From sequence record MT176427.1: a stretch of DNA of 49,567 nucleotides; one strand, 5' to 3'. Shown piece by piece: positions 517-49,308 of this stretch. Numbering within the stretch: position 1 is the first letter of the stretch; every line of letters begins with the position of its first letter. A program made the translations under genes and the position numbers. The notes beneath the pieces are model-generated. The model saw nothing but the letters and a program-made list of their open reading frames with translations, was not told the DNA's origin and did not search any database. The stretch comes from Escherichia phage CJ19.

Positions 517-562
517 AGTATACCCGCACAGCGGCGGGTATGTTTAGCAATTCGTGCTATTC
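517..562 (-). promoter_or_regulatory. early promoter cassette (ATAGCAC box + hairpin + -10 TATACT)
   Basis: Box 543-562; hairpin ACCCGC/GCGGGT; 22-bp spacer; start of 253-486 downstream. Confidence 0.5.
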
Positions 563-1830: not shown

Positions 1831-1876
1831 ATAATACACCACCTCACCGCTTCGTCTTTAGCAATTCGTGCTATTC
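1831..1876 (-). promoter_or_regulatory. early promoter cassette (ATAGCAC box + -10 TATTAT)
   Basis: Box 1857-1876; hairpin GAGGTG/CACCTC with -10 in loop; 22-bp spacer; leader TCATCGAAACGAAG. Confidence 0.5.
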
Positions 1877-2286
1877 AGCATATCAGCAACTGCTTTCTTG
1901 TATTCCTCCTGACCGTATGCCACCGCCGCGAACCCGCCACGCTCACGCACGCGCCGGAGGAAATCTTTCTGCTCCTTACTGACTGGTGATGCCTTGCCTT
2001 TCCCGCTCTTATTGACGCGCTTCAATTCTATGGCCCCGAACGGATATTTACCGAACGGGCCTAGAAGGAATACAAAANCACTAACCCCTTTCAATAACCC
2101 GCTCTGAGCATCCTTTAGCGCCGTGTGGATGTGCTTCTTGTTCTCATTAACGGCGTGCCAGAACAGCAAATCAACATGCCTAACCTTAGTCCAAGTCACG
2201 CAGTCTACCTGGTGCTTGCTTTCCGTCCATGTGTCAGATTTGTCTGGAGTGTAATATTCCAGGTAGTCGCCTTTGTCTGTGATCAT
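1858..2286 (-). CDS. VRR-NUC / PD-(D/E)XK-like nuclease (putative)
   Basis: 142-aa ORF with a candidate (D)-x(n)-ELK nuclease motif (GAIELKRV); sits directly upstream of and overlapping the helicase gene; one codon contains an N at 2078. Confidence 0.4.
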   Translation of the reverse strand: MITDKGDYLEYYTPDKSDTWTESKHQVDCVTWTKVRHVDLLFWHAVNENKKHIHTALKDAQSGLLKGVSXFVFLLGPFGKYPFGAIELKRVNKSGKGKASPVSKEQKDFLRRVRERGGFAAVAYGQEEYKKAVADMLNSTNC

Positions 2287-4385
2287 AAGTTACCGTCCAA
2301 TCCAAAATCCTTACGTGAGATAATATCCTCACCCTTTGCATTCTTGCGGTGAGTTACCCGCACCGGATGCGCTATGTGGTGAGCATTGTTTAAAATCATT
2401 TTCGCACTTCTGTAAGCTGCCATTAATTTTGCGATCTTACTGTCATGAACGTGAGGTAATACCCCTTTCTGCTTCCATATCGTGTGGCATACCTGTGCCG
2501 TTGACTGAGGGAAGAACTTCTCATACGCGATGAAGTTAACTCCAACTGAGTCTGTCAGGTCGTACCGATAAAGAATGCCAGTATGATTACGTGTCAGCGT
2601 GACTTCGAAACTGTTAACTGTGCACCAGTCGTTTTTGGTGTAAGCCTTACCAGTCAGGTTATCATTGGGATCTTTCAGGCTCACGTCACAGCAACGGCAT
2701 ATTCTCGCCACTACGTCATTTTCAGCGCCACATCCCTTAACAATCACCTCGCCAGTGCGATCATCAATCTGGTCTTCACATATGCGAGACTTCCAGAAAT
2801 ACTCGCAACGATTTCCGTTTTCATCTCTGTGAATGCAGCGGCGAGCGTAAAAACTGTTCTCAGTTCCGCACAGTTCACATTTTTTCGGCTCTTTCTTACC
2901 ATCAAAGCGGCGCTGGTACTGAGCCTCTTCAAGAATCGGATCAAAGTAAAGCTGACCCAGCTCGTCCATGCAACCCGCAAAATCCCATACCAGGTGATCT
3001 TCCTTCACCATTCCCATCTCTTTTTGCCACGGCTTAAGCAATCTCATACCTCGACCAAGCAACTGGATCAGCAGAGTAAGTGAACCGATTTTGCGAAGGA
3101 TTACCGAAAAATCCCAAAACGGAACGTTAACTCCAGTGGTTAGCGCCATAACCTGAAATATGTATTTTATCTCGCCACGGTTAGCCGCCTCAAGTATTGC
3201 TTGTCGCTTTTTGGTGTTAGTCTTTTCCGTAATGATCTCATAGGTGGAGCCATGTGGAAGATAGCTCGCTGCCTCCTTGCAGTGTCGCTGACCTGCGCAC
3301 GTAATCAGTACGCCATTTCGCTTTTTCGCTTCCTCTACGACCATCCCCATGATTCGCTTTGTCATGCTGGCGTTGTCATGGATTTTATTTTCCATCGCCT
3401 TCATTTCTTTCTGGCTAAAATCCGCAGTTCCGTCCTGGCTTGATGCCTTGAACTCACCAAGATCATAGCCAGCGTCACCAACACTTCCGAATATTGTTGG
3501 AACAACTGAACCGAACTCAATAAGGTAATTAGTGTCGATGTTAGTAACCTGCTCACGCCAGAACCCAGGTAACTTAGGGTTATCGACAACAATCGGAGTT
3601 GTGCCTCTGAACTCAGAACCAGTCATGCCGAAGATGCGTAATTCTTTCCCGTTCTTCTCTTTGCAGCGGCGCATCAATTCAGTGATAATGATCGTGTACT
3701 GGCTTCGCTTGGTGCCGAGAACAGGCTTGCCAGTCTTCCGTCTGATTAGCAATTGCTTATCCATCACCTGAACGCCAACTTCTACGCCGTCAAGGTATCC
3801 ATTGACATAACCTTCGCTGTTTTTCGGGTAGTCAACGAATACACGCTCACCTTTTTCAGTGAGCATCATTTCAATCGTCTCTTCGTTGTCGATGGCGGCG
3901 GCAAGGTCTTCCCAATCCACCTGGTGACATTCATCAATACCCAGCACCATAGGTGTAAAATCACCAAGCGCCTTAAACAGACCGTTTGCAACCGTTCCTT
4001 CCGAACCGACAACGATTGGGAAGTAAGCTGATTTTGTGTTCAAGCCAGCACAGTAAACTGAGTTAGGAACGCCAAAGTTTGAGATCTCCTCACTATCCTG
4101 AGCGACAATATCGCCCTGACGCGCCAGTATCATCATCGACAAGCCCATTTCTTTNACGCGCGATGCGATCATGGCAAAGCCGATCGTCTTACCTGCCGAC
4201 ACTGACGCCTTAACGATGAATGGATGCTTATAGCGAGCAATGCGCTTGCCGATCTCGTCATACATTACGCACTGATACTCATAAGGAACCATGTCGCCAA
4301 ATGTGAATTTATCCTGAATCTCTTTAATCCTCTGCGGCCCGAGGTCTTCTATCTGTTTTTTAATGGATTTAATGCGCATAGCCAT
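2283..4385 (-). CDS. SF2 DNA helicase with C-terminal Cys-rich zinc-finger region
   Basis: Walker A (SAGKTIGFA), DExH box (GIDECHQ), C-terminal CxxC clusters; promoter cassette 4423-4467 upstream; N at 4155. Confidence 0.8.
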   Translation of the reverse strand: MAMRIKSIKKQIEDLGPQRIKEIQDKFTFGDMVPYEYQCVMYDEIGKRIARYKHPFIVKASVSAGKTIGFAMIASRXKEMGLSMMILARQGDIVAQDSEEISNFGVPNSVYCAGLNTKSAYFPIVVGSEGTVANGLFKALGDFTPMVLGIDECHQVDWEDLAAAIDNEETIEMMLTEKGERVFVDYPKNSEGYVNGYLDGVEVGVQVMDKQLLIRRKTGKPVLGTKRSQYTIIITELMRRCKEKNGKELRIFGMTGSEFRGTTPIVVDNPKLPGFWREQVTNIDTNYLIEFGSVVPTIFGSVGDAGYDLGEFKASSQDGTADFSQKEMKAMENKIHDNASMTKRIMGMVVEEAKKRNGVLITCAGQRHCKEAASYLPHGSTYEIITEKTNTKKRQAILEAANRGEIKYIFQVMALTTGVNVPFWDFSVILRKIGSLTLLIQLLGRGMRLLKPWQKEMGMVKEDHLVWDFAGCMDELGQLYFDPILEEAQYQRRFDGKKEPKKCELCGTENSFYARRCIHRDENGNRCEYFWKSRICEDQIDDRTGEVIVKGCGAENDVVARICRCCDVSLKDPNDNLTGKAYTKNDWCTVNSFEVTLTRNHTGILYRYDLTDSVGVNFIAYEKFFPQSTAQVCHTIWKQKGVLPHVHDSKIAKLMAAYRSAKMILNNAHHIAHPVRVTHRKNAKGEDIISRKDFGLDGNL

Positions 4386-4422
4386 AGTATTAAATGCCTT
4401 TCATGTTCGTTCGATTGACGTT

Positions 4423-4467
4423 ATAATAACAGCCATCGAAACCAATGTTTAACAAAAAGTGCTATTG
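4423..4467 (-). promoter_or_regulatory. promoter cassette for helicase operon
   Basis: Box variant ATAGCAC-N3-TTGTTAAA at 4448-4467; -10 TGtTATTAT; leader CAATCGAACGAACATGAAAGG. Confidence 0.45.
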
Positions 4468-4477
4468 AGGTGATGAG

Positions 4478-4951
4478 ATGAATGCAGTCGACAAGCGAAC
4501 CATTAACGGCAACAACGGAACAGTCCGAACTGAAGACAAAAAGCAACGAAAACGACCTTCAGGTTACTACGTTTTAAAAGATGAAGTAAAGGCCGGGCTT
4601 CGGGCGCGACTGGAGATGGTTCTCGACTTCTACGGAACGAAGGCCAATATCGCAAAGCAACTGAAGGTTAGTCGCCAGGCGGTTGAGGAATGGTTCAAGA
4701 GGGGCATGATGTCGGCCCGAGGCGCTCAACTGGCGCACAACCGATACAAGCGAACTGGAGAGGGTTTTCGCGCGACTTTTTGCCGACCGGATCTGCAATT
4801 CGATGGCAACGGAAAGCCGCTGACACTCCGGTGCAAAAAACGTCACATGCTGCGCGTTGTTACTGAGGCTGAATTAGCTACGAAGCCAGAATGTCGATCG
4901 TGGCGCAAGATTAAGGCCGCTAACGAAGCAGCACGAAAAGCTAAAGAGTAA
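4478..4951 (+). CDS. putative HTH DNA-binding protein (Cro/YdaS-like)
   Basis: Segment IAKQLKVSRQAVEEWFKRG resembles a Cro/YdaS-type helix-turn-helix; strong RBS GAGGTGATGAG before ATG; basic protein; terminator 4956-4990 follows. Confidence 0.4.
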   Translation: MNAVDKRTINGNNGTVRTEDKKQRKRPSGYYVLKDEVKAGLRARLEMVLDFYGTKANIAKQLKVSRQAVEEWFKRGMMSARGAQLAHNRYKRTGEGFRATFCRPDLQFDGNGKPLTLRCKKRHMLRVVTEAELATKPECRSWRKIKAANEAARKAKE

Positions 4952-4955
4952 AATT

Positions 4956-4990
4956 AAGGTTGTGCCATAATCGGTGCAACCTTTTTTATT
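4956..4990 (+). terminator. intrinsic terminator
   Basis: Hairpin AAGGTTGTGCC-ATAATC-GGTGCAACCTT followed by TTTTTT. Confidence 0.6.
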
Positions 4991-5008
4991 TGTTAAGAGA
5001 TTATTTAT

Positions 5009-5932
5009 ATGCACTACGATAAGAGAGAGGTTTTACCAAGAATGCGCGGCCTATGGGATAAGGCGCTTATCAATATATGTGGCGCAGATCCTAAGTTTTT
5101 CCAGACCAAAAAACACCAGCCATGCATTTATTGCGGAGGAAGCGATCGCGCGAGATGGACCAACAAAGTTAGCGAAGATGGTGATGGTGGAATTATCTGC
5201 AACCAATGCGGTTCAGGAGATGGTATTATTTGGGTCCAGAAGCTGCGAGGTGAGTCATTTAGTGAATGTATCGATGTTCTCGGTGAGTGGTTAAACCTTA
5301 TCCCTGTAGAAGTGGTTAATAAGGCAAATAAGCAAGCATCAAGGACTCAGCATTACAAAATGGGCGCTCAAGTAGATCATGAAAAAGTTCTTGAAGTCAT
5401 GGAGCGGACTGTAAGAGTTGAATCAAGCCAACTCACAACATATGAGGGTATTTATCTTGATGATGGATTCGATGTTGGTATAGCTAAGGATGGATCAATG
5501 ATTCATGCCGTACCTTGCTCGATGGTTTACGAGGATGGGATTGGTAATGAGTTCTGCAACTTAATGTTTATTGATGGAGATTCAAATGTTAAATTCCTTG
5601 CTGGTGATTACACTCGTGATTCTGTTGCTGTCATTGGTTCTTGGCAGGTTGATGGTTACACTTATGTTGTTGATAATTTTATTGATGGCGTACGTGTTCA
5701 TATTGCTACTGGGGGGCGTGAGGTGTTTGTTGCTTTCTCCTGTTATAACATGGAAATGGTTATTCACCGAGACAAGTCCCGCAGCTTCAGGATTGCTTGT
5801 CGTGATCATGATTTTGATATACTCTCTATTGCTGATGACAGGTCTGTTGGTGTAGTCATCCCAAATGATGGCAAGTCATTTAAAACAGGCATTAGAAAGA
5901 AAGTTTACAAAGCAAACGACTTGCTAAAATAA
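5009..5932 (+). CDS. DNA primase (zinc-binding N-terminus, Toprim-like core)
   Basis: N-terminal CxxC...CxxC (CIYCGG...CNQCG) zinc-binding element followed by acidic D-rich core; location next to helicase; followed by terminator 5933-5955. Confidence 0.55.
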   Translation: MHYDKREVLPRMRGLWDKALINICGADPKFFQTKKHQPCIYCGGSDRARWTNKVSEDGDGGIICNQCGSGDGIIWVQKLRGESFSECIDVLGEWLNLIPVEVVNKANKQASRTQHYKMGAQVDHEKVLEVMERTVRVESSQLTTYEGIYLDDGFDVGIAKDGSMIHAVPCSMVYEDGIGNEFCNLMFIDGDSNVKFLAGDYTRDSVAVIGSWQVDGYTYVVDNFIDGVRVHIATGGREVFVAFSCYNMEMVIHRDKSRSFRIACRDHDFDILSIADDRSVGVVIPNDGKSFKTGIRKKVYKANDLLK

Positions 5933-5955
5933 CCTCCTTCTGGAGGTTTTTTTAT
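5933..5955 (+). terminator. intrinsic terminator after primase
   Basis: Hairpin AACCTCC-TTCT-GGAGGTT followed by TTTTTTT. Confidence 0.6.
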
Positions 5956-5961
5956 GCCTAA

Positions 5962-5998
5962 AGCAATGCTATACTGCACTTTAGCAATTCGTGCTAAA
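5962..5998 (+). promoter_or_regulatory. extended -10 promoter (TGCTATACT) with the palindromic box downstream at operator position
   Basis: TGCTATACT at 5967-5975; perfect palindrome TTTAGCA-ATTCG-TGCTAAA at 5980-5998, 23 nt before tail fibre ATG. Confidence 0.4.
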
Positions 5999-6021
5999 CA
6001 ACAATATAGGAGTTGATTATT

Positions 6022-7941
6022 ATGGCAATTTATGACTTAGGAACAGCATCGCTAGCCGCAAATGGCGAGGTTACTGGCGTCGGGACGACATGGAAAGCAC
6101 CGCTTACACTGATTCGCGTTGGTGCTACCATTGTTTTCAAAACTGAACCAGTACAGATTTACACTATCTCAGAAATTATCAGCGATACGCAGATTAATGT
6201 TTATAACCCTAATTCTGAAACTGTTCCTGCCGGAACTGGTTACGCGATTCTTGCTCACGATGGGATTACCGTTCAGGGCTTAGCTCAGGATGTTGCTGAG
6301 ACGCTTCGTTACTATCAGTCACGTGAAACTGAGGTTGCAGATGCAGTTGATGCATTTAATAACTTTGATGCTAATGACTTTAGCGCGAAGGTTGCGCAGG
6401 TTAACACGCAACACGGAGATATTGTATCAATTGGATTACAAGTATCTACTGACGCCTCCAAAGTATCAGCTGATAAGGATGCGGCTTCGGCCAGCGCACT
6501 AGCAGCCGAAAGCAGCAAGAATTCAGCAGCCACTTCGGCTCAGGAGGCAGAGGATTACGCGGCATCTCTCGATACATCAAGACTTTTAAGAAAAGACATG
6601 GCTTTGTCTGATCTAACTGATAAGCCACTAGCAAGGTTGAACCTTAATGTATACTCTAAGATTGAAACATTAAACTTTAAAAACATATATCCAACTATGA
6701 CTAATCAGGAGATAAGGGCTATCCTTTTATCTGGTGGGGATATTTTTGTTAATAGTGGTCAGTATTATGTTGCATCAGCAACTCAGACATGGGCGCTCGC
6801 TCAAAACACTAGATTGTATTGGTCTGCTGGTGCACTTCTCTCTGCTTCATCAAATAACGTTACTTTACTTAGAATGTCATCGGAAGATGTATCATCTGCA
6901 TTCATTAGGAANTGCAAGGTTTACAATCCTAGACTTTCTACCGTTGGTTTTAACAATTGCATTGGACTTCACGCTTTTAACGCAAGGAATAACTCTGGGG
7001 TTGATGGTTTGTGGCTTGATCTGGGTCTTGGTTCCTCTAATAATGGGGTTATAATTGAAAAGTTTAGCTATGGTTTTAGGTTTAATGACTCTGAGATTTT
7101 AAATGGCGGGGTAGGCTCCATTAGGGTGCTTTTAAGGAATGGCCCAAACTCTGTTCTTATAAACAATCACATAGGTTATAGTGGTGATCATTCAGGTGCG
7201 CTCCCAGATTATGGAATTGTAATATTTAACGGAAGTGATGGTTCATTTAATTTCCCTGAAGACTCCGATCTTTGGCCTACCGCTGCTACAGTAATCAACG
7301 GTGGTTACTCTCAAAATACATCAAAGTACGGCATACTAGATTCTGGTGTTAGCACTTTGGTTAATGGTACTTACCTTGAAAGGAATGGAGTGTCAGATGT
7401 TGCTTTGTCAAGTGGAAGTTATTATTTTACAAGCAACGCCACACATCACAGTCTTAATGTTGGTGAGTCATGTTTCAAAGGTTCTGGCGCAAACCACGCA
7501 ACTATAGGAGCTTTCAATCCAGCAGATAGATCTATTGGCTTGTACAACTTCGCTTCTGGAGTAAACTGTAGGGCAGATGGCTCTAAGATCTGGGGTGGGT
7601 TCCTTAATAAAATTGGCGTTGTTGGAGGATTAATCCTTGATCTTGGAAATAACTCTTTAAAACAATACTCANCATCATCATTGCCAATAAATACAAGAGA
7701 AGGTTATTCATCTTACAGAATTAACGTTACTTCAGGGCTTGATGTTACGACAACAACACCAAGGGATGGTGAGTGTATTAATTTAATTTTAAGGGGGGCA
7801 AACATTCAAAGTCTGTCATTTAATGGAATTGCCCTTGATGTTACTGGGGCTAACACATCCACTACAAAAACTTGCTTAATTACAGCGATTTATTGGTCTG
7901 AAATATCAACTTATATAATAAATCAAAGCACTTGGCGTTGA
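6022..7941 (+). CDS. tail fibre protein (conserved N-terminal anchor, variable beta-helix-like C-terminal part)
   Basis: 640-aa ORF, Ala/Ser-rich coiled region then Asn/Gly/Ser-rich repeats typical of fibre or beta-helix receptor-binding proteins; position between primase and ssb as in T1-like genomes; start moved to ATG 6022 (RBS AGGAG 6008-6012); N at 6912 and 7672. Confidence 0.65.
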   Translation: MAIYDLGTASLAANGEVTGVGTTWKAPLTLIRVGATIVFKTEPVQIYTISEIISDTQINVYNPNSETVPAGTGYAILAHDGITVQGLAQDVAETLRYYQSRETEVADAVDAFNNFDANDFSAKVAQVNTQHGDIVSIGLQVSTDASKVSADKDAASASALAAESSKNSAATSAQEAEDYAASLDTSRLLRKDMALSDLTDKPLARLNLNVYSKIETLNFKNIYPTMTNQEIRAILLSGGDIFVNSGQYYVASATQTWALAQNTRLYWSAGALLSASSNNVTLLRMSSEDVSSAFIRXCKVYNPRLSTVGFNNCIGLHAFNARNNSGVDGLWLDLGLGSSNNGVIIEKFSYGFRFNDSEILNGGVGSIRVLLRNGPNSVLINNHIGYSGDHSGALPDYGIVIFNGSDGSFNFPEDSDLWPTAATVINGGYSQNTSKYGILDSGVSTLVNGTYLERNGVSDVALSSGSYYFTSNATHHSLNVGESCFKGSGANHATIGAFNPADRSIGLYNFASGVNCRADGSKIWGGFLNKIGVVGGLILDLGNNSLKQYSXSSLPINTREGYSSYRINVTSGLDVTTTTPRDGECINLILRGANIQSLSFNGIALDVTGANTSTTKTCLITAIYWSEISTYIINQSTWR

Positions 7942-7948
7942 TGTAAAN

Positions 7949-7977
7949 AATAAAAGCCCCGAAAGGGGCTTTATCTT
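7949..7977. terminator. bidirectional terminator between tail fibre and ssb
   Basis: Hairpin AAAGCCCC-GAAA-GGGGCTTT flanked by A-run and T-run; convergent genes. Confidence 0.6.
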
Positions 7978-8438
7978 TAGAATGGAATGTCGTCGTCGAA
8001 TTGCATTGACTGATTTGGTTGCTGCTGCTGGCGTTGTTGATGCTGTTGCTGAGGCTGATGTTGCTGCTGCCGTTGTTGACCTTGATTCTGCTGCTGCGCT
8101 GGTTCTCGCTGGCTGAATTGCAGTTGAGGTCGGATCATTTCAGCGGTGACGTAAACAGTCCCGTCATTACCCTGTCTAGACGATAAGTGAAGAGTGTCAG
8201 CAGAAATTGAAACAACCTTGCCCTCCTGGAACGCTTCATCATACCACTGCATAACATTTTCTTTTGCGAAGAATGTAGCTCTGTAGTTGCTGTAAACCGT
8301 CTCATCCTCGCCATTATGATTTCGAATCTTCATTCGTTCAGAAAGTTCTACGGCATACATTTTCCATCGCCCGTTATTGTTGCTACCTTCTTTTGTGAAT
8401 GGTTCTTTACGGATCTGACCAGTGATTACGTGTGGCAT
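7977..8438 (-). CDS. ssb: single-stranded DNA-binding protein
   Basis: C-terminus is Q-rich linker followed by the canonical acidic SSB tip DDDIPF. Confidence 0.7.
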   Translation of the reverse strand: MPHVITGQIRKEPFTKEGSNNNGRWKMYAVELSERMKIRNHNGEDETVYSNYRATFFAKENVMQWYDEAFQEGKVVSISADTLHLSSRQGNDGTVYVTAEMIRPQLQFSQREPAQQQNQGQQRQQQHQPQQQHQQRQQQQPNQSMQFDDDIPF

Positions 8439-9170: not shown

Positions 9171-9213
9171 ATTATAGCAAATCACCGCGTTCGTGTTTAG
9201 CAAAAAGTGCTAC
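9171..9213 (-). promoter_or_regulatory. early promoter cassette (ATAGCAC box + TGCTATAAT)
   Basis: Box 9196-9213; hairpin CGGTGAT/ATCACCG; consensus extended -10. Confidence 0.5.
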
Positions 9214-10680: not shown

Positions 10681-10726
10681 AATAGCACGAATAGCTAAAT
10701 ACTCCGTAATCATCCTTTGCTATAGT
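10681..10726 (+). promoter_or_regulatory. promoter cassette (ATAGCAC box + TGCTATAGT)
   Basis: Box 10681-10700; -10 at 10721-10726; leader CCATCGAAACGAAACAC; drives lipoprotein gene. Confidence 0.5.
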
Positions 10727-15369: not shown

Positions 15370-15414
15370 GATGTTTAGCCTTTCGTGCGATTTATCGAAG
15401 TTTCATTATACAGG

Positions 15415-25333: not shown

Positions 25334-25451
25334 AATTTGTTTTCCTTTGTTTGTTAGAAAGCCGTGATTAAGTTCACGGCTCTATAATAGCATTTTTTGT
25401 TAAACGGTCAACAGCTTTTTATGTTAAGCGATTATGTCGCTCTCTGGCAAT

Positions 25452-33537: not shown

Positions 33538-33863
33538 TATTCGTAAACCTCATCAATGATTTCGCTGATCTTGTTCATTGTGTCAACCTTGGCGCAATCC
33601 CATTCCGGTGAGCCTGGTTCTTCCCATGGTCCGCCAGGGTCGTGACATGTCATGTTGTCGATAAGTTCTGACACCTCACTTTCCAGAACGTTACGCATGT
33701 GCTCAACCTGCCAGCATTCAACCGAGTCCTCCGATTCGCGGTAAGCCTTGAACTCACCGCCGAGAACTTTCTGTGCCGCTTCGGCTGATTCCTTCGTTTC
33801 GTGAACGGTCCGGTGAATCTCTTTACCGAACTTGCCGACCCCGTATGTGTTAATGTAAATCAT
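33537..33863 (-). CDS. hypothetical acidic protein (108 aa)
   Basis: ORF in early operon with 1-bp overlap to downstream gene. Confidence 0.35.
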   Translation of the reverse strand: MIYINTYGVGKFGKEIHRTVHETKESAEAAQKVLGGEFKAYRESEDSVECWQVEHMRNVLESEVSELIDNMTCHDPGGPWEEPGSPEWDCAKVDTMNKISEIIDEVYE

Positions 33864-34072: not shown

Positions 34073-34102
34073 TTCTGCTTCCTCGTTCGTTTCGATGGGG
34101 TA

Positions 34103-34148
34103 ACTATACAGCTACCCCGATTATGAGTTTTAACAAAAAGTGCTATCG
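34103..34148 (-). promoter_or_regulatory. early promoter cassette (ATAGCAC box + TATAGT)
   Basis: Box 34128-34148; -10 at 34103-34108 in hairpin loop; 22-bp spacer. Confidence 0.5.
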
Positions 34149-34776: not shown

Positions 34777-35408
34777 TACCAGGGTAATCCATCTTCCCAC
34801 TCGTAAACATCAACCTCTGTAACTGGTGAGCTAATACCGCAAGCCTCAGCCACTGCCATTACACCGCCTTCAATATCACCATTGACCAGATGCACATCAT
34901 GCTCGTTATATTTCTTGTAATCAGGAAAATGCGATTCCTTGATGCGAATGTAATCACGGCTATCGCCAGCGAAAGTCTTGCCATCCATGAACAGGCGGAC
35001 CAGGGTAACATCGTGACCATCTTCAACGAGTCGGATCACTTCGTCGGGGAAGCCGCCATCAGTGCAAACAAAGCAGAAGCCTTCATCACACAGCTGGATA
35101 TGTTCGCTCATCAATTTGCCGAACTGCTGATTGCCAAAAAGCGGCTTGACCACTGTTTCGCTAATCCAGATCATGAACTCACGGCAGGTCTTGCCACCGA
35201 GAAATTTCTGAGGCTGCTCTTTCTGATCGCGGTAGTCGTATGCGGTGATGAACTTTGAGAAAGCTCTGGCACCAAGGATGGATGCCGCAATCTCAAACAT
35301 CGGACGCTTGAAGCTGGTAGGGATGCAGTTGTAATCCGCTGCGAGCGCGTTGCCGATCGTGTCTTTACCAACCGAAGCTGGACCGTTGAGAATGATAATC
35401 TTTGACAT
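34776..35408 (-). CDS. P-loop nucleotide/polynucleotide kinase-like protein
   Basis: N-terminal P-loop GPASVGKDT resembling NMP-kinase Walker A; 210 aa. Confidence 0.5.
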   Translation of the reverse strand: MSKIIILNGPASVGKDTIGNALAADYNCIPTSFKRPMFEIAASILGARAFSKFITAYDYRDQKEQPQKFLGGKTCREFMIWISETVVKPLFGNQQFGKLMSEHIQLCDEGFCFVCTDGGFPDEVIRLVEDGHDVTLVRLFMDGKTFAGDSRDYIRIKESHFPDYKKYNEHDVHLVNGDIEGGVMAVAEACGISSPVTEVDVYEWEDGLPW

Positions 35409-36029: not shown

Positions 36030-36075
36030 ATTATACCAGTCAGGATGAATCCCCCTTTAACAAAACGTGCTATTT
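36030..36075 (-). promoter_or_regulatory. early promoter cassette (ATAGCAC box + TGGTATAAT)
   Basis: Box 36056-36075; 22-bp spacer; leader CATCAACCACACGAAAGGAAG before phosphatase ATG. Confidence 0.5.
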
Positions 36076-36876: not shown

Positions 36877-36917
36877 GTGTGATTCCTCAGTTGATTTGTG
36901 TTCACTTGACAGGAGAC

Positions 36918-36963
36918 ACTATATCTAATGTCTCCGAGCAAGTTTTAACAAAAAGTGCTATTC
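36918..36963 (-). promoter_or_regulatory. early promoter cassette (ATAGCAC box + TATAGT)
   Basis: Box 36943-36963; hairpin GGAGACA/TGTCTCC with -10 in loop. Confidence 0.5.
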
Positions 36964-37761: not shown

Positions 37762-37807
37762 ACTATATCAAATGGCCTTGCGGAAGGTTTAACGATTAGT
37801 GCTATTT
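37762..37807 (-). promoter_or_regulatory. early promoter cassette (ATAGCAC box + TGATATAGT)
   Basis: Box 37788-37807; hairpin AAGGCCA/TGGCCTT with -10 in loop. Confidence 0.5.
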
Positions 37808-38553: not shown

Positions 38554-38592
38554 AAATTACCCCTTAGTTGATTGTTTCACTTCAATGAGTGC

Positions 38593-38638
38593 ACTATAGC
38601 AAATGCACTCACGGCAGTTTTAACAAAAAGTGCTATCG
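38593..38638 (-). promoter_or_regulatory. early promoter cassette (ATAGCAC box + TGCTATAGT)
   Basis: Box 38618-38638; hairpin TGAGTGCA/TGCACTCA with -10 in loop; drives paralog P1. Confidence 0.5.
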
Positions 38639-39778: not shown

Positions 39779-39824
39779 ATCATAGCTGACTACCCGATTT
39801 GTTGTTTAGCAATTCGTGCTATTC
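39779..39824 (-). promoter_or_regulatory. early promoter cassette (ATAGCAC box + TATGAT)
   Basis: Box 39805-39824; 22-bp spacer; drives decayed P4 and P3-P2 operon. Confidence 0.45.
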
Positions 39825-41527: not shown

Positions 41528-41574
41528 AATAGCACTTTTTGCTAATGACCGATCAGGTGTGATTCGCTATTATT
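41528..41574 (+). promoter_or_regulatory. promoter cassette (ATAGCAC box + TATTAT)
   Basis: Box 41528-41546; -10 at 41569-41574; leader CCATCGAAACGAG. Confidence 0.5.
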
Positions 41575-42447: not shown

Positions 42448-42491
42448 ATAGCACGAATTGCTAAACTAAGCCTCACGGATTGAGGCATAAT
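42447..42491 (+). promoter_or_regulatory. promoter cassette (ATAGCAC box + CATAAT)
   Basis: Box 42447-42465; hairpin GCCTCA/TGAGGC; leader TCATCGAAACGAAG. Confidence 0.5.
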
Positions 42492-42529
42492 CATTTCATC
42501 GAAACGAAGTACACAAAGAGGAAGTAAAA

Positions 42530-43379: not shown

Positions 43380-44044
43380 AAAAGGTAATTTACTGCTTGT
43401 TCGACGGTTCTGGTATCGCTGGCCTCCCATGGGCGGAAGATGGTCACACCGTCTACTGCTTCAATGCGGACTCCGGCAATCATGGCGAATACCATATCAA
43501 GATGAAGCATGAGAACATCCACTACGTCAACATGTGGATTGACAAGGATTTCATCACTAAGTGTGAATTGCTCGGCCTGCCTCCGGCGCAAATGGTTATC
43601 GGCTTTCCTGATTGCACGCTGTTCTCTCAGTCTGGATCACAGCATGAGCGCGGGGAAGATGAGCTGGCATACGCCCTGGCTAACGCGAAGCTCGTCGAAG
43701 AAGTCGGCAATCACTTCCAGGCACCATGGATGGTTGAGAATCCGGTAGGCAAGCTGTCAAGCCTGTGGCGTAAGCCTGACTTCTATTTCAATCCTTGCGA
43801 TTATGGCGGTTACGTTGATCACGATGATGTTTATCACCCAAGAATGCCCCCTCGTAATGCTTACAATAAAAAGACTTGCATTTGGTGTGGCAATGGATTT
43901 GTTGAACCTATTAAAAAGCCAGTTGAGAGCATTGGATTCTTCTGGGCCTGGAAATACTGCGGCGGAAAGTCTGCAAAGACAAAGGTACTCCGCTCATTAA
44001 CACCGGAAGGCTTTGCTCGCGCACTATATGAAAGCAACAAATAG
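43376..44044 (+). CDS. DNA methyltransferase-like protein (C5-cytosine-type motif order)
   Basis: Motif I-like FDGSG, motif IV-like GFPDC with Cys, motif VI-like ENPVG in the right order and spacing; short (222 aa). Confidence 0.4.
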   Translation: MKKVIYCLFDGSGIAGLPWAEDGHTVYCFNADSGNHGEYHIKMKHENIHYVNMWIDKDFITKCELLGLPPAQMVIGFPDCTLFSQSGSQHERGEDELAYALANAKLVEEVGNHFQAPWMVENPVGKLSSLWRKPDFYFNPCDYGGYVDHDDVYHPRMPPRNAYNKKTCIWCGNGFVEPIKKPVESIGFFWAWKYCGGKSAKTKVLRSLTPEGFARALYESNK

Positions 44045-44084
44045 CACTAATTGCTAAAGCCCTTCGGGGCTTTTCCTGTATATT
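44040..44084 (+). promoter_or_regulatory. promoter cassette (ATAGCAC box + TGTATATT)
   Basis: Box 44040-44058; hairpin AGCCC/GGGCT; leader TCATCGAAACGAAACAC. Confidence 0.5.
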
Positions 44085-44120
44085 CATCTCATCGAAACGA
44101 AACACGCAAAGGAAATCAAA

Positions 44121-44471
44121 ATGACAGCAACAACTAAAAACTTCATTAGCAACGAAAACGTATTATACAAAGCTCGTGTTAAAGACGGTGTAGAGCAAAT
44201 CAAGAAAGATGGTAAATGGGTTAACCTGGAAGAACGCGGTAAGTACATCAAGACAAAAACTCTTTACTGCACGAAGGTTAATCACAGGTCAGCAGTTAAA
44301 AAAGACTTCAAAGAAGGTAAGCGCTATCAGGTAAATATTCATGCTGGCCTTGGCCAATCTGCCGGTTACATTTACGATGAGGATGGTAATGCTTGGCAGC
44401 TTTACCGAAACGAAGAGGTTGGCTTCATGAGCCTCTGCGGTACGTACAAGTGGCAGGCGGCGTACAAATAA
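44121..44471 (+). CDS. hypothetical Lys-rich protein (116 aa)
   Basis: Promoter cassette 44040-44084 and leader TCATCGAAACGAAACACGCAAAGGAAA upstream. Confidence 0.4.
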   Translation: MTATTKNFISNENVLYKARVKDGVEQIKKDGKWVNLEERGKYIKTKTLYCTKVNHRSAVKKDFKEGKRYQVNIHAGLGQSAGYIYDEDGNAWQLYRNEEVGFMSLCGTYKWQAAYK

Positions 44472-48120: not shown

Positions 48121-48166
48121 GAATATAGCGCCTTCCGGAGCTATAGTGTTAGGCAATTCGTGCTAT
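48121..48166 (-). promoter_or_regulatory. promoter cassette (ATAGCAC box variant + TATATT)
   Basis: Box 48148-48166 (TTGCCTAA variant); precedes small ORF 47921-48094. Confidence 0.4.
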
Positions 48167-49308
48167 CAGATGTCGCTCATTTCAGGACGGTAAACAAAGC
48201 GACCGACTTCGCCGAACTCCTTGGAGTAGACAATTACCGCCGCCTGGCGATATGAGCGCCAACCGCCGCGCGCTGCATAGGCATCTTTCGCGCCAAGCTG
48301 ACCGTGAATCTCATCAATACCCAGCGTGCCTTCTGTGATCGTCTGGTGATGCCAGTGTCCTGAGTGAGTGTAGATATATTTGCTCGTACCGAACTCTTCG
48401 CGGAAGTCAGTCGCCATTGCCGCCAGTCGAGTATCAGCTTTCTTCATGGTGTGACCATGAGTGTATCCAAGCAATGTTTTGCCCCACTTTGTACGGTGAA
48501 GAATCATAGGAGACGTATCAACCGTTACGCGCGCCTCATCTTCAAAGTATGCCGCCATTGCAGCGCGGAGCCAAATCATACCCGCCTGATCATGGTTCCC
48601 TTCAATGATCTGGATTTCGACCTCTTCGTGCTTATCCAGCATTAGCGCCACCGCGCGGCGTACGGAACGGATTGCAACGTGAACTATCTTGGCGTATCGA
48701 CTATCCTGATCCAGTACGTGACCGCTTGCAGGCGTTACTGCGTCCAGGCCATCAGAGTGAAGGAAGTCACCGCCGATTAACAGGACTGCTTTCTTAGCCT
48801 TCGGTGATACGCCGACAGAATAATCAAAGAAGTTTTTCAGCACTTTCTCTGAGATGTCGGTGCTGTAGTTCTCACCGCATTCATGCTTGTGGGCCATCGC
48901 GCCAATATGAAGATCGAATACCGGATAGAGCGCCAGGAGATTTTCATCGTAGTGAGGTTCGCCAAGGATAGGCTGAGCCGCCGCGCGTGGTAGTTCATCA
49001 CAGAATGCTTCAATTGCAGCATCCATCATGGCGGCTAACTTTTCCTTGTCCTGATCGGTCTTAACCCAGCGCACAACCTCAGAACCGTCAGCGCGAATCA
49101 TAGTTGATGTACCTTTAACCTGAAAACCCTCTGGTACGTGTACTCTTACGTGTTTATTTCCGTGGAACTCACCGCGCTTTGCCAGGCGGCTTGAGCGCTG
49201 CTCAACAGTTCTAATGTTCATCCCGTATTCCTGGGCGATTTGGCGCAGCGTTTTACCAGCTTCGCGTTCAGCAATGAATTGTTCGTCAGTGATTTTTTGA
49301 ATAGCCAT
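48166..49308 (-). CDS. metallophosphoesterase (calcineurin-like) with N-terminal HTH
   Basis: N-terminal HTH-like TLRQIAQEYGMNIRTV; phosphoesterase motifs FDLHIG, GDFLHSD, GNHD, GHTM, GHWHH. Confidence 0.6.
   Translation of the reverse strand: MAIQKITDEQFIAEREAGKTLRQIAQEYGMNIRTVEQRSSRLAKRGEFHGNKHVRVHVPEGFQVKGTSTMIRADGSEVVRWVKTDQDKEKLAAMMDAAIEAFCDELPRAAAQPILGEPHYDENLLALYPVFDLHIGAMAHKHECGENYSTDISEKVLKNFFDYSVGVSPKAKKAVLLIGGDFLHSDGLDAVTPASGHVLDQDSRYAKIVHVAIRSVRRAVALMLDKHEEVEIQIIEGNHDQAGMIWLRAAMAAYFEDEARVTVDTSPMILHRTKWGKTLLGYTHGHTMKKADTRLAAMATDFREEFGTSKYIYTHSGHWHHQTITEGTLGIDEIHGQLGAKDAYAARGGWRSYRQAAVIVYSKEFGEVGRFVYRPEMSDI

Follow-up and report, generated by a model that had tools for sequence, protein, structure and literature searches.

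A 21-nt repeat is already known from T1-like phages. In phage TLS it was described as 'DR' aaATAGCACnnnTTGnTAAAA, with 21 copies that are intergenic, run along transcription, and stand about 76 nt before start codons (PMC11447400). Similar repeats were noted in T1, Rtp, and Rogue1 by German, Kropinski and Misra 2024, and the roles offered for the TLS repeat were those of a stoperator, an enhancer site or a UP element (PMC11447400). The T1 genome paper, as cited by the TLS paper, proposed RpoD promoters, perhaps enhancers (PMC11447400).

Another described system close to the present findings is the regulon of the E. coli activators MarA, SoxS, and Rob. Their binding site was defined by the Grainger laboratory as 5'-gcannwwntgnnaaa-3' (PMC12052159), and ChIP-seq of MarA from the same laboratory gave the consensus 5'-gcactaattgctaaa-3' (PMC5684230). 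In a class II promoter a forward marbox overlaps the −35 element, with its centre between −36 and −55 (PMC12052159). The complex of RamA and polymerase at micF, a class II promoter, has been solved; its site, 5'-CACT-7X-AAA, has its centre at about −41 (PMC8811837). The same proteins can also repress, as at E. coli pbpG, where the marbox used by MarA, SoxS, and Rob lies within the spacer of the promoter (PMC12052159).

The window (the whole stretch of DNA analyzed, 49,567 nucleotides of record MT176427.1, Escherichia phage CJ19) is an Rtp/T1-like siphovirus of the Drexlerviridae, Braunvirinae-like. Over positions 5000–8000 it shares 99.5% identity with Escherichia phage ETEP102, and 77–89% with Rtp, IME253, and the BASEL Piccard phages. 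ETEP102 carries between its VRR-NUC and helicase genes an HNH homing endonuclease gene (ETEP102 2790–3287) that is missing at window 2283–2290; the window is therefore from a close relative of ETEP102, a different phage. Coordinates of the features discussed below are collected in Table 1.

Table 1. Promoters, boxes, and genes in the window. For the box promoters the position is that of the box, and the last column gives the distance to the −10 and the −10 hexamer, or another remark.
Feature	Position	Strand	Details
Intrinsic terminator of primase transcript, AACCTCCTTCTGGAGGTT plus T run	5931..5955	+	stem 5931–5948, T run to 5953
Extended −10 TGCTATACT of lateral tail-fibre gene, without −35	5967..5975	+	sequence and relatives
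Predicted tail-fibre mRNA start	5982..5984	+	inferred, 7–8 nt past −10 as in micF
19-bp perfect palindrome	5980..5998	.	marbox 15-mer on minus strand, 5994 to 5980
Shine-Dalgarno AGGAG of tail-fibre gene	6008..6012	+	sequence
Lateral tail-fibre gene, ATG at 6022	6022..7941	+	ETEP102_52 'putative lateral tail fiber protein'
DNA primase gene, upstream neighbour	5009..5932	+	annotation
157-aa Cro-like HTH protein, Rtp rtp52 / T1 gp23 family	4478..4951	+	candidate phage-encoded reader
Major-capsid promoter, TTGACC-16-TGcTATTAT	25384..25411	-	TTGACC 25411–25406; −10 25389–25384
Helicase promoter, forward box	4448..4462	-	reversed relative to divergent HTH gene, adjoins HTH gene SD
Primase promoter, weaker forward box	4931..4945	+	−10 CATAAT at 4966–4971
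Box promoter	543..557	-	20 nt, TATACT
Box promoter	1857..1871	-	20 nt, TATTAT
Box promoter of Erf recombinase gene	9196..9210	-	19 nt, TATAAT
Box promoter	10685..10699	+	21 nt, TATAGT
Box promoter	34129..34143	-	20 nt, TATAGT
Box promoter, box GCACTAATTGCTAAA	34758..34772	-	15/15 MarA consensus
Box promoter	36056..36070	-	20 nt, TATAAT
Box promoter	36944..36958	-	20 nt, TATAGT
Box promoter	37788..37802	-	20 nt, TATAGT
Box promoter	38619..38633	-	20 nt, TATAGT
Box promoter	39805..39819	-	20 nt, TATGAT
Box promoter	41532..41546	+	21 nt, TATTAT
Box promoter	42451..42465	+	20 nt, CATAAT
Box promoter	44044..44058	+	15/15 MarA consensus
Box promoter, weaker box	48149..48163	-	21 nt, TATATT

A first-pass annotation of this DNA had drawn attention to a tail-fibre gene embedded among early genes, and by annotation the gene is indeed flanked by the primase gene on one side and ssb/recombination genes on the other. 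The primase transcript ends at a strong intrinsic terminator with a 7-bp stem, four GC pairs and a T tail, which is kept in relatives and is annotated in ETEP102. Reading out the sequence past this terminator confirmed the extended −10 and, four bases further on, the palindrome TTTAGCA-ATTCG-TGCTAAA, with perfect 7-bp arms and a 5-bp spacer. The minus strand of the palindrome carries GCACGAATTGCTAAA, reversed with respect to the tail-fibre gene. Relative to the predicted start this box spans about −3 to +12, with its centre at about +5, and the start site implied by the annotation agrees with ours within one base. The geometry thus places the box where it had been claimed to lie, downstream of the −10 and over the predicted start site of the tail-fibre gene.

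A half box TTGCTAAAA was also seen at 5921–5929, at the 3' end of the primase coding sequence and just before the terminator. It is kept in Rtp, IME253, and SU57 and is missing in JulesPiccard, TR3, and BEK3; because it is conserved in some relatives only, it is probably a coincidence of the coding sequence.

That the box lies upstream of the −10 at other promoters had been part of the same claim, and this was found at many early promoters, at a fixed and activator-like distance. With up to two mismatches allowed, the box family has 8 matches in the window (0.25 expected), a count reached in 0 of 100 shuffles, and 15 of 17 regular-expression matches are followed by a −10 at 19–21 nt. The forward copies number 16–17, all before non-structural genes, and their −10 hexamers are found 19–21 nt downstream, mostly at 20. 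Their common architecture is aATAGCAC-N3-T-TG-Y-TAAA, a gap of 19–21 nt, a TATAGT-like −10, a leader starting CATCGAAACGAA, an SD, and the ATG, and the canonical box promoters have no −35. Across 82 promoters from five phages (window, T1, TLS, Rogue1, and Motto) the spacing is 20 nt in most and ranges over 19–21. The canonical boxes are oriented with transcription at every site, and those of the window are members of the TLS DR family, sharing its orientation and its distance from the start codon.

The tail-fibre palindrome can be recognized as the Drexlerviridae 21-nt repeat aaATAGCACnnnTTGnTAAAA in a single, inverted copy. Its minus strand reads ttTAGCACGAATTGCTAAAg, in which the core ATAGCAC...TTGCTAAA is matched except for an A to T change at the first core position. 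It differs from the TLS DR in being inverted and in ending 24 nt from the ATG instead of about 76 nt. Its score against the position weight matrix is 20, compared with 25–33 for the canonical copies, and relatives have the full AATAGCACGAATTGCTAA. The TLS paper makes no mention of a marbox, of the fixed 20-nt distance to the −10, or of inverted copies (PMC11447400).

Several further features accompany the box promoters. An inverted repeat of variable sequence flanks the −10 in most of them, for example ggggtagctgTATAGTtacccc, with minus-strand instances at 34085–34128, 36900–36943, and 38575–38618, and the same is seen in T1, TLS, Rogue1, and Motto. Over the 82 promoters the mean folding energy of the 40 nt past the box is −11.1 kcal/mol (mean z −2.97 against shuffles). 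The stems vary among promoters, as if compensated, and a few of them (543, 34758, 44044) carry T runs and are true terminators. These hairpins possibly serve in insulation or processing of read-through RNA, or have an effect at the DNA level. The HTH gene, which precedes primase, ends in a terminator hairpin (4956–4983) whose loop contains the primase −10, and TLS has the same layout at its primase promoter, with a canonical box. The leader motif CATCGAAACGAA, which begins at about +1 of box promoters, has 11 matches (3.6 expected), among them 494–503, 1813–1822, 33792–33801, 42500–42509, 44093–44102, and 44406–44415, and is also present in T1, TLS, Rogue1, and Motto. A weak forward box before the tail-tip gene (15371–15394, matrix score 15.6) overlaps the SD and may be due to chance.

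Other identities for the repeat were considered and rejected. TTGCTA was ruled out as a −35 hexamer, with a spacer of 22 bp to the −10 in all copies. The sigma-54 promoter consensus is TGGCAC-N5-TTGC; the G residues in TAGCACGAATTGC are 9 bp apart, 2 bp short of the 11 bp required, and a sigma-70 −10 follows at a fixed distance. A SlyA/MarR-type site, TTAGC-N2-GCTAA, has the wrong half-site spacing.

By its sequence the Drexlerviridae repeat is instead a consensus marbox, the asymmetric site of about 20 bp bound by MarA, SoxS, and Rob (RamA in Klebsiella), activators of the AraC family that act as monomers. Two window boxes, so marked in Table 1, match the MarA consensus gcactaattgctaaa at 15 of 15 positions. 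The commonest box type GCACGAATTGCTAAA, to which the tail-fibre copy belongs, matches at 14 of 15 and agrees with all constrained positions of gcannwwntgnnaaa; GCACTTTTTGTTAAA likewise satisfies every constrained marbox position. With up to two mismatches from the MarA consensus there are 10 sites in the window where 0.14 are expected. In the information profile the phage boxes vary where the marbox is degenerate (N, W, and Y), and their conservation ends at the marbox edges.

The spacing agrees as well. The chromosomal sequence of E. coli micF reads GCACTGAATGTCAAA-N20-TAGAAT-N7-+1, so that the gap from AAA to the −10 is 20 nt there as it is in the phage box promoters. With their starts predicted, the 16–17 canonical copies have class II geometry; the tail-fibre copy, reversed and downstream of its −10, does not. 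The phage boxes share with micF, lpxC, lpxL, and rfaY the forward orientation and a −35 that is replaced or overlapped. They differ from E. coli class II sites in belonging to a virulent phage genome with about 17 such promoters per 50 kb, in being far nearer to consensus than most chromosomal sites, and in having, for the most part, a hairpin around the −10. Literature searches found no paper linking marboxes or MarA/SoxS/Rob to T1-like phages; the repeat itself was already known, and what appears new is its identification as a marbox and the significance of its inverted copies.

The palindrome had also been taken as an argument for a protein-binding operator, and here the comparison gave no support: the perfect symmetry is a local two-base variant (TT to AA). 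Among the sequences compared it occurs only in the window phage, in ETEP102, and in one IMG/VR contig with the same leader, whereas relatives have an asymmetric 18-mer TTAGCAATTCGTGCTATT at the tail-fibre site. The TT to AA change sits in the low-information 5' flank of the marbox, and with it the profile score drops from about 30 to 20. Outside the palindromic variants only a 5-bp TAGCA/TGCTA dyad is left, which is itself part of the E. coli marbox consensus, and the box family as a whole is asymmetric and oriented, with degenerate positions that track the non-palindromic marbox. The site does share with dimeric operators of the Cro/CI type a 7-5-7 palindrome over the start site and a phage-encoded Cro-like HTH protein. 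It differs from them in that dyad symmetry, the mark of such operators, is not conserved across the homologous phage sites, and in that the repeat family is asymmetric and oriented.

Comparison with other phages shows the promoter at the tail-fibre site to be real. A TGnTAnnAT or −35/−10 promoter stands at the same place, just past the terminator, in Rtp, IME253, JulesPiccard, TR3, SU57, BEK3, T1, TLS, Rogue1, NJS1, CS01, and GS156. TGCTAnAnT is invariant in 7 Braunvirinae, six of which have TGCTAcAAT; T1 has TTGCAA-17-TGaTAAAAT, TLS and GS156 have TTGCAT-17-CATAAT, Rogue1 has TGaTACAAT, and Klebsiella phage NJS1 and Cronobacter phage CS01 have TGCTATTAT. The extended −10 is no chance match, because an activator-independent promoter is found at the same place in all lineages examined. 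In the T1 annotation a small ORF, ST25 (34791–34934), overlies the tail-fibre promoter, box, and leader; we suggest that it is not a gene, because of the conserved SD and the ATG at 34881.

The reversed box, as the identical 18-mer TTAGCAATTCGTGCTATT, follows the −10 by 5–6 nt in both Rtp-type and T1-type phages, although the intervening bases and the flanks have diverged and are unalignable. A scan of IMG/VR found the arrangement of a −10 and a reversed box in 19 contigs, upstream of the tail-fibre gene in 18 of them, and in a Salmonella Tlsvirus a good reversed box stands 13 nt past the −10. At the tail-fibre promoters of TLS, Motto, and Vc1 the box is decayed, and in Rogue1, NJS1, and CS01 there is none. 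Any delay of the tail-fibre gene is thus not indispensable, since TLS, Rogue1, NJS1, and CS01 have the promoter without an intact box. The reversed box after the tail-fibre −10 is therefore old and recurrent, yet dispensable.

A reversed box was found at two further places. In the promoter of the major capsid gene, GCATTTTTTGTTAAA (plus strand, 25390–25404) fills the spacer and supplies the extended −10. The window, T1, and TLS, which represent three subfamilies, share this promoter design; Rogue1 lacks it. The other reversed box stands between the −10 and the SD of the gene for the 157-aa HTH protein, a position that follows from the overlap of the HTH promoter with the divergent box promoter of the helicase gene. 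These two promoters (4386–4477; helicase on the minus strand, HTH on the plus strand) are divergent, and their −10 hexamers TATAAT and TATTAT overlap at 4422–4428. T1, TLS, Rogue1, NJS1, and CS01 keep this layout, which resembles a switch between two mutually exclusive states.

The tail-fibre and capsid sites share with pbpG-type repression a marbox inside the polymerase footprint of an activator-independent promoter. Besides pbpG, rob, purA, and hdeA are also repressed through a marbox overlapping the core promoter. The capsid promoter has its box in the spacer, as pbpG does, whereas the tail-fibre box is downstream of the −10 and over +1, instead of in the spacer or at the −35. Its centre falls within about −35 to +25 of an activator-independent promoter, the range given for repression (PMC12052159).

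We tentatively propose, as quite possible though short of probable, that through the inverted marbox the early-gene activator, a host protein of the MarA/SoxS/Rob type, represses the tail-fibre and capsid promoters. At early promoters the AAA end of the box, 20 nt before the −10, would put the box centre near −41, where it would replace the −35; by the class II mechanism the bound activator would touch sigma-70 region 4 and the alpha-CTD and so recruit RNA polymerase. The tail-fibre gene has its own activator-independent extended −10, with the reversed box 4–5 bp downstream of it. A protein bound there would overlap the region that polymerase must melt and occupy, which would put the early activator in competition with polymerase for this promoter. 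The capsid promoter would likewise be blocked by the reversed box in its spacer, and expression of both genes would remain low until the factor became limiting. Forward boxes at −41 would then mark early promoters, and reversed boxes in the polymerase footprint, we infer, mark two late genes whose own promoters are strong.

An operator is the best reading of the tail-fibre box, and it is partly supported, in that geometry and conservation fit it. The idea of the first-pass annotation that one factor could activate from the upstream position and repress or delay from the position over the start is supported by the layout. A wider form of the proposal, in which nearly all of the early programme is wired to host MarA/SoxS/Rob by way of consensus class II marboxes and the same protein represses the capsid and tail-fibre promoters, we regard as doubtful. 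The switch from early to late expression might then come from loss or titration of the host factor, with hundreds of replicated genomes that each carry about 20 high-affinity sites, or alternatively from Lon turnover of MarA and SoxS after host transcription stops. Literature searches found no transcriptome, start-site map, binding or timing data for any Drexlerviridae or T1-like phage.

The pertinent question is then which protein reads the box. We favour host MarA/SoxS/Rob, since identity with the consensus together with micF spacing would be very unlikely for the site of an unrelated protein, and we regard the phage Cro-like HTH protein as the main and a serious rival. The phage appears to bring no such activator of its own: phmmer with MarA and SoxS sequences found nothing below E = 0.4 among all 483 ORFs, and no Pfam match to an AraC-type protein was found in 55 non-structural ORFs. 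Rob is constitutively abundant (PMC7216687). It counts against a host reader that unstressed cells contain little MarA and SoxS and that Rob is largely sequestered (PMC7216687). The mutations of classical T1-resistant strains lie in tonA/tonB. When the Keio collection was screened with LL5, a T1-like phage, the genes recovered were LPS genes, tolC, ppiB, and secB, and not rob, marA or soxS (PMC7229145). From the screen and the mapping it follows that no single host activator is indispensable. The genetics could still agree with a host reader if the three activators are redundant or the promoters have basal activity. The consensus boxes and the Cro-like regulator are also present in two Drexlerviridae with a GC content of about 45% whose recorded hosts are P. 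aeruginosa (Motto) and V. cholerae (Vc1); provided that these records are correct, the boxes bear on the identity of the reader and count against a host protein.

The rival keeps the same layout and logic and assigns them to the phage 157-aa protein, which would be made at once from a box-independent sigma-70 promoter, would activate the box promoters from about −41, and would then shut its own divergent promoter and repress the tail-fibre and capsid promoters. The protein, the one regulator predicted in this part of the phage genome, has a weak Pfam match to P22_Cro/YdaS and a single Cro-like HTH, and its AF2 model (pLDDT 88.9) has its best fold matches in Xfaso-1 and N15 Cro, so that a Cro-like fold is predicted with confidence. 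Its first 142 residues are 100% identical to the counterpart in phage GaoY1-9D. The HTH promoter (in T1, TTGAAT-17-TATAAT) is independent of the box and overlaps the helicase box promoter, which suits autoregulation, and the 5-bp dyad TAGCA-N5-TGCTA would offer half-sites one helical turn apart. A phage reader would also account for the negative Keio result and for boxes in phages recorded from Pseudomonas and Vibrio. It would, however, require a chance coincidence with the E. coli marbox consensus at 14–15 of 15 positions and with micF spacing. The box is moreover strictly oriented and asymmetric, the G of GCAC being invariant and its dyad partner merely Y, and it is invariant across a family in which the recognition helix varies between subfamilies (VSRQAVEEW in the window, VSNQTVQGW in T1). 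An early repressor of the capsid promoter would also need a further switch for late expression. On this evidence we consider the phage protein unlikely as the reader. Another possible DNA-binding protein is a 380-aa phosphoesterase/DNA-repair exonuclease homologue (48166–49308, minus strand), with an N-terminal HTH-like segment …GKTLRQIAQEYGMNIRTVEQRSSRLAKRGE… that Pfam does not flag.

If either protein acts at the tail-fibre copy, that copy has a function; a further explanation denies it one and takes it as the leftover of a duplicated promoter module that moved with its leader by recombination. The same unit of reversed box and SD precedes the HTH gene, the reversed box being followed directly by GAGGTG and ATG there and at the Tlsvirus tail-fibre gene. 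The palindromic variant accompanies this leader in an IMG/VR contig with a different upstream region, and the box is degenerate or absent in the phages named above (TLS, Motto, Vc1, Rogue1, NJS1, CS01). Loss of role does not sit well with an 18-mer that is identical in T1-type and Rtp-type phages though the 5–6 nt to the −10 and the surroundings have diverged, nor with the parallel reversed box in the capsid promoter spacer of three subfamilies, and we judge this explanation improbable.

Very little credence is given to a role in RNA, in which a 5'-terminal hairpin would stabilize the tail-fibre transcript or modulate its translation: the palindrome can fold in the predicted leader as a 7-bp stem with a 5-nt loop, but the fold is no better than that of shuffles (z −0.18 in the window, +0.64 in Rtp, +0.29 in T1), relatives retain 5 bp of the stem, the predicted start falls within the 5' arm, and canonical boxes lie upstream of the start and are untranscribed from their own promoters. 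Equally far-fetched is the box as part of a promoter, be it for minus-strand antisense into primase or with its GTGCTATT end as a second tail-fibre extended −10: the reversed box in the capsid promoter does provide TGCTATTAT and the box end in Rtp-type phages is TGCTATTTT, but there is no minus-strand −10 at 19–21 nt past the AAA end in the window, Rtp or T1, a minus-strand transcript would meet the terminator at once, the putative second −10 is TAAACA in the window and TATTTA in T1 (no T at position 6), and a start from it would leave nearly no leader before the SD.

Annotators of T1-family phages have been puzzled by the near absence of recognizable sigma-70 promoters, and taking the repeat for a consensus marbox placed as in class II promoters gives a concrete and directly testable model. 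The inverted copies at the tail-fibre and capsid genes suggest that a phage encoding neither a sigma factor nor an RNA polymerase could keep early and late expression apart by means of one factor. If the wider proposal is true, phage development would be tuned by the stress state of the host (bile, salicylate, oxidants), and the mar/sox/rob regulon would in turn be drained during infection. If the reader is indeed the host factor, phage development would be tied to the main intrinsic antibiotic-resistance regulon of enterobacteria, which would be relevant to combinations of phage and antibiotics, as Drexlerviridae are common therapy candidates against E. coli and Klebsiella.
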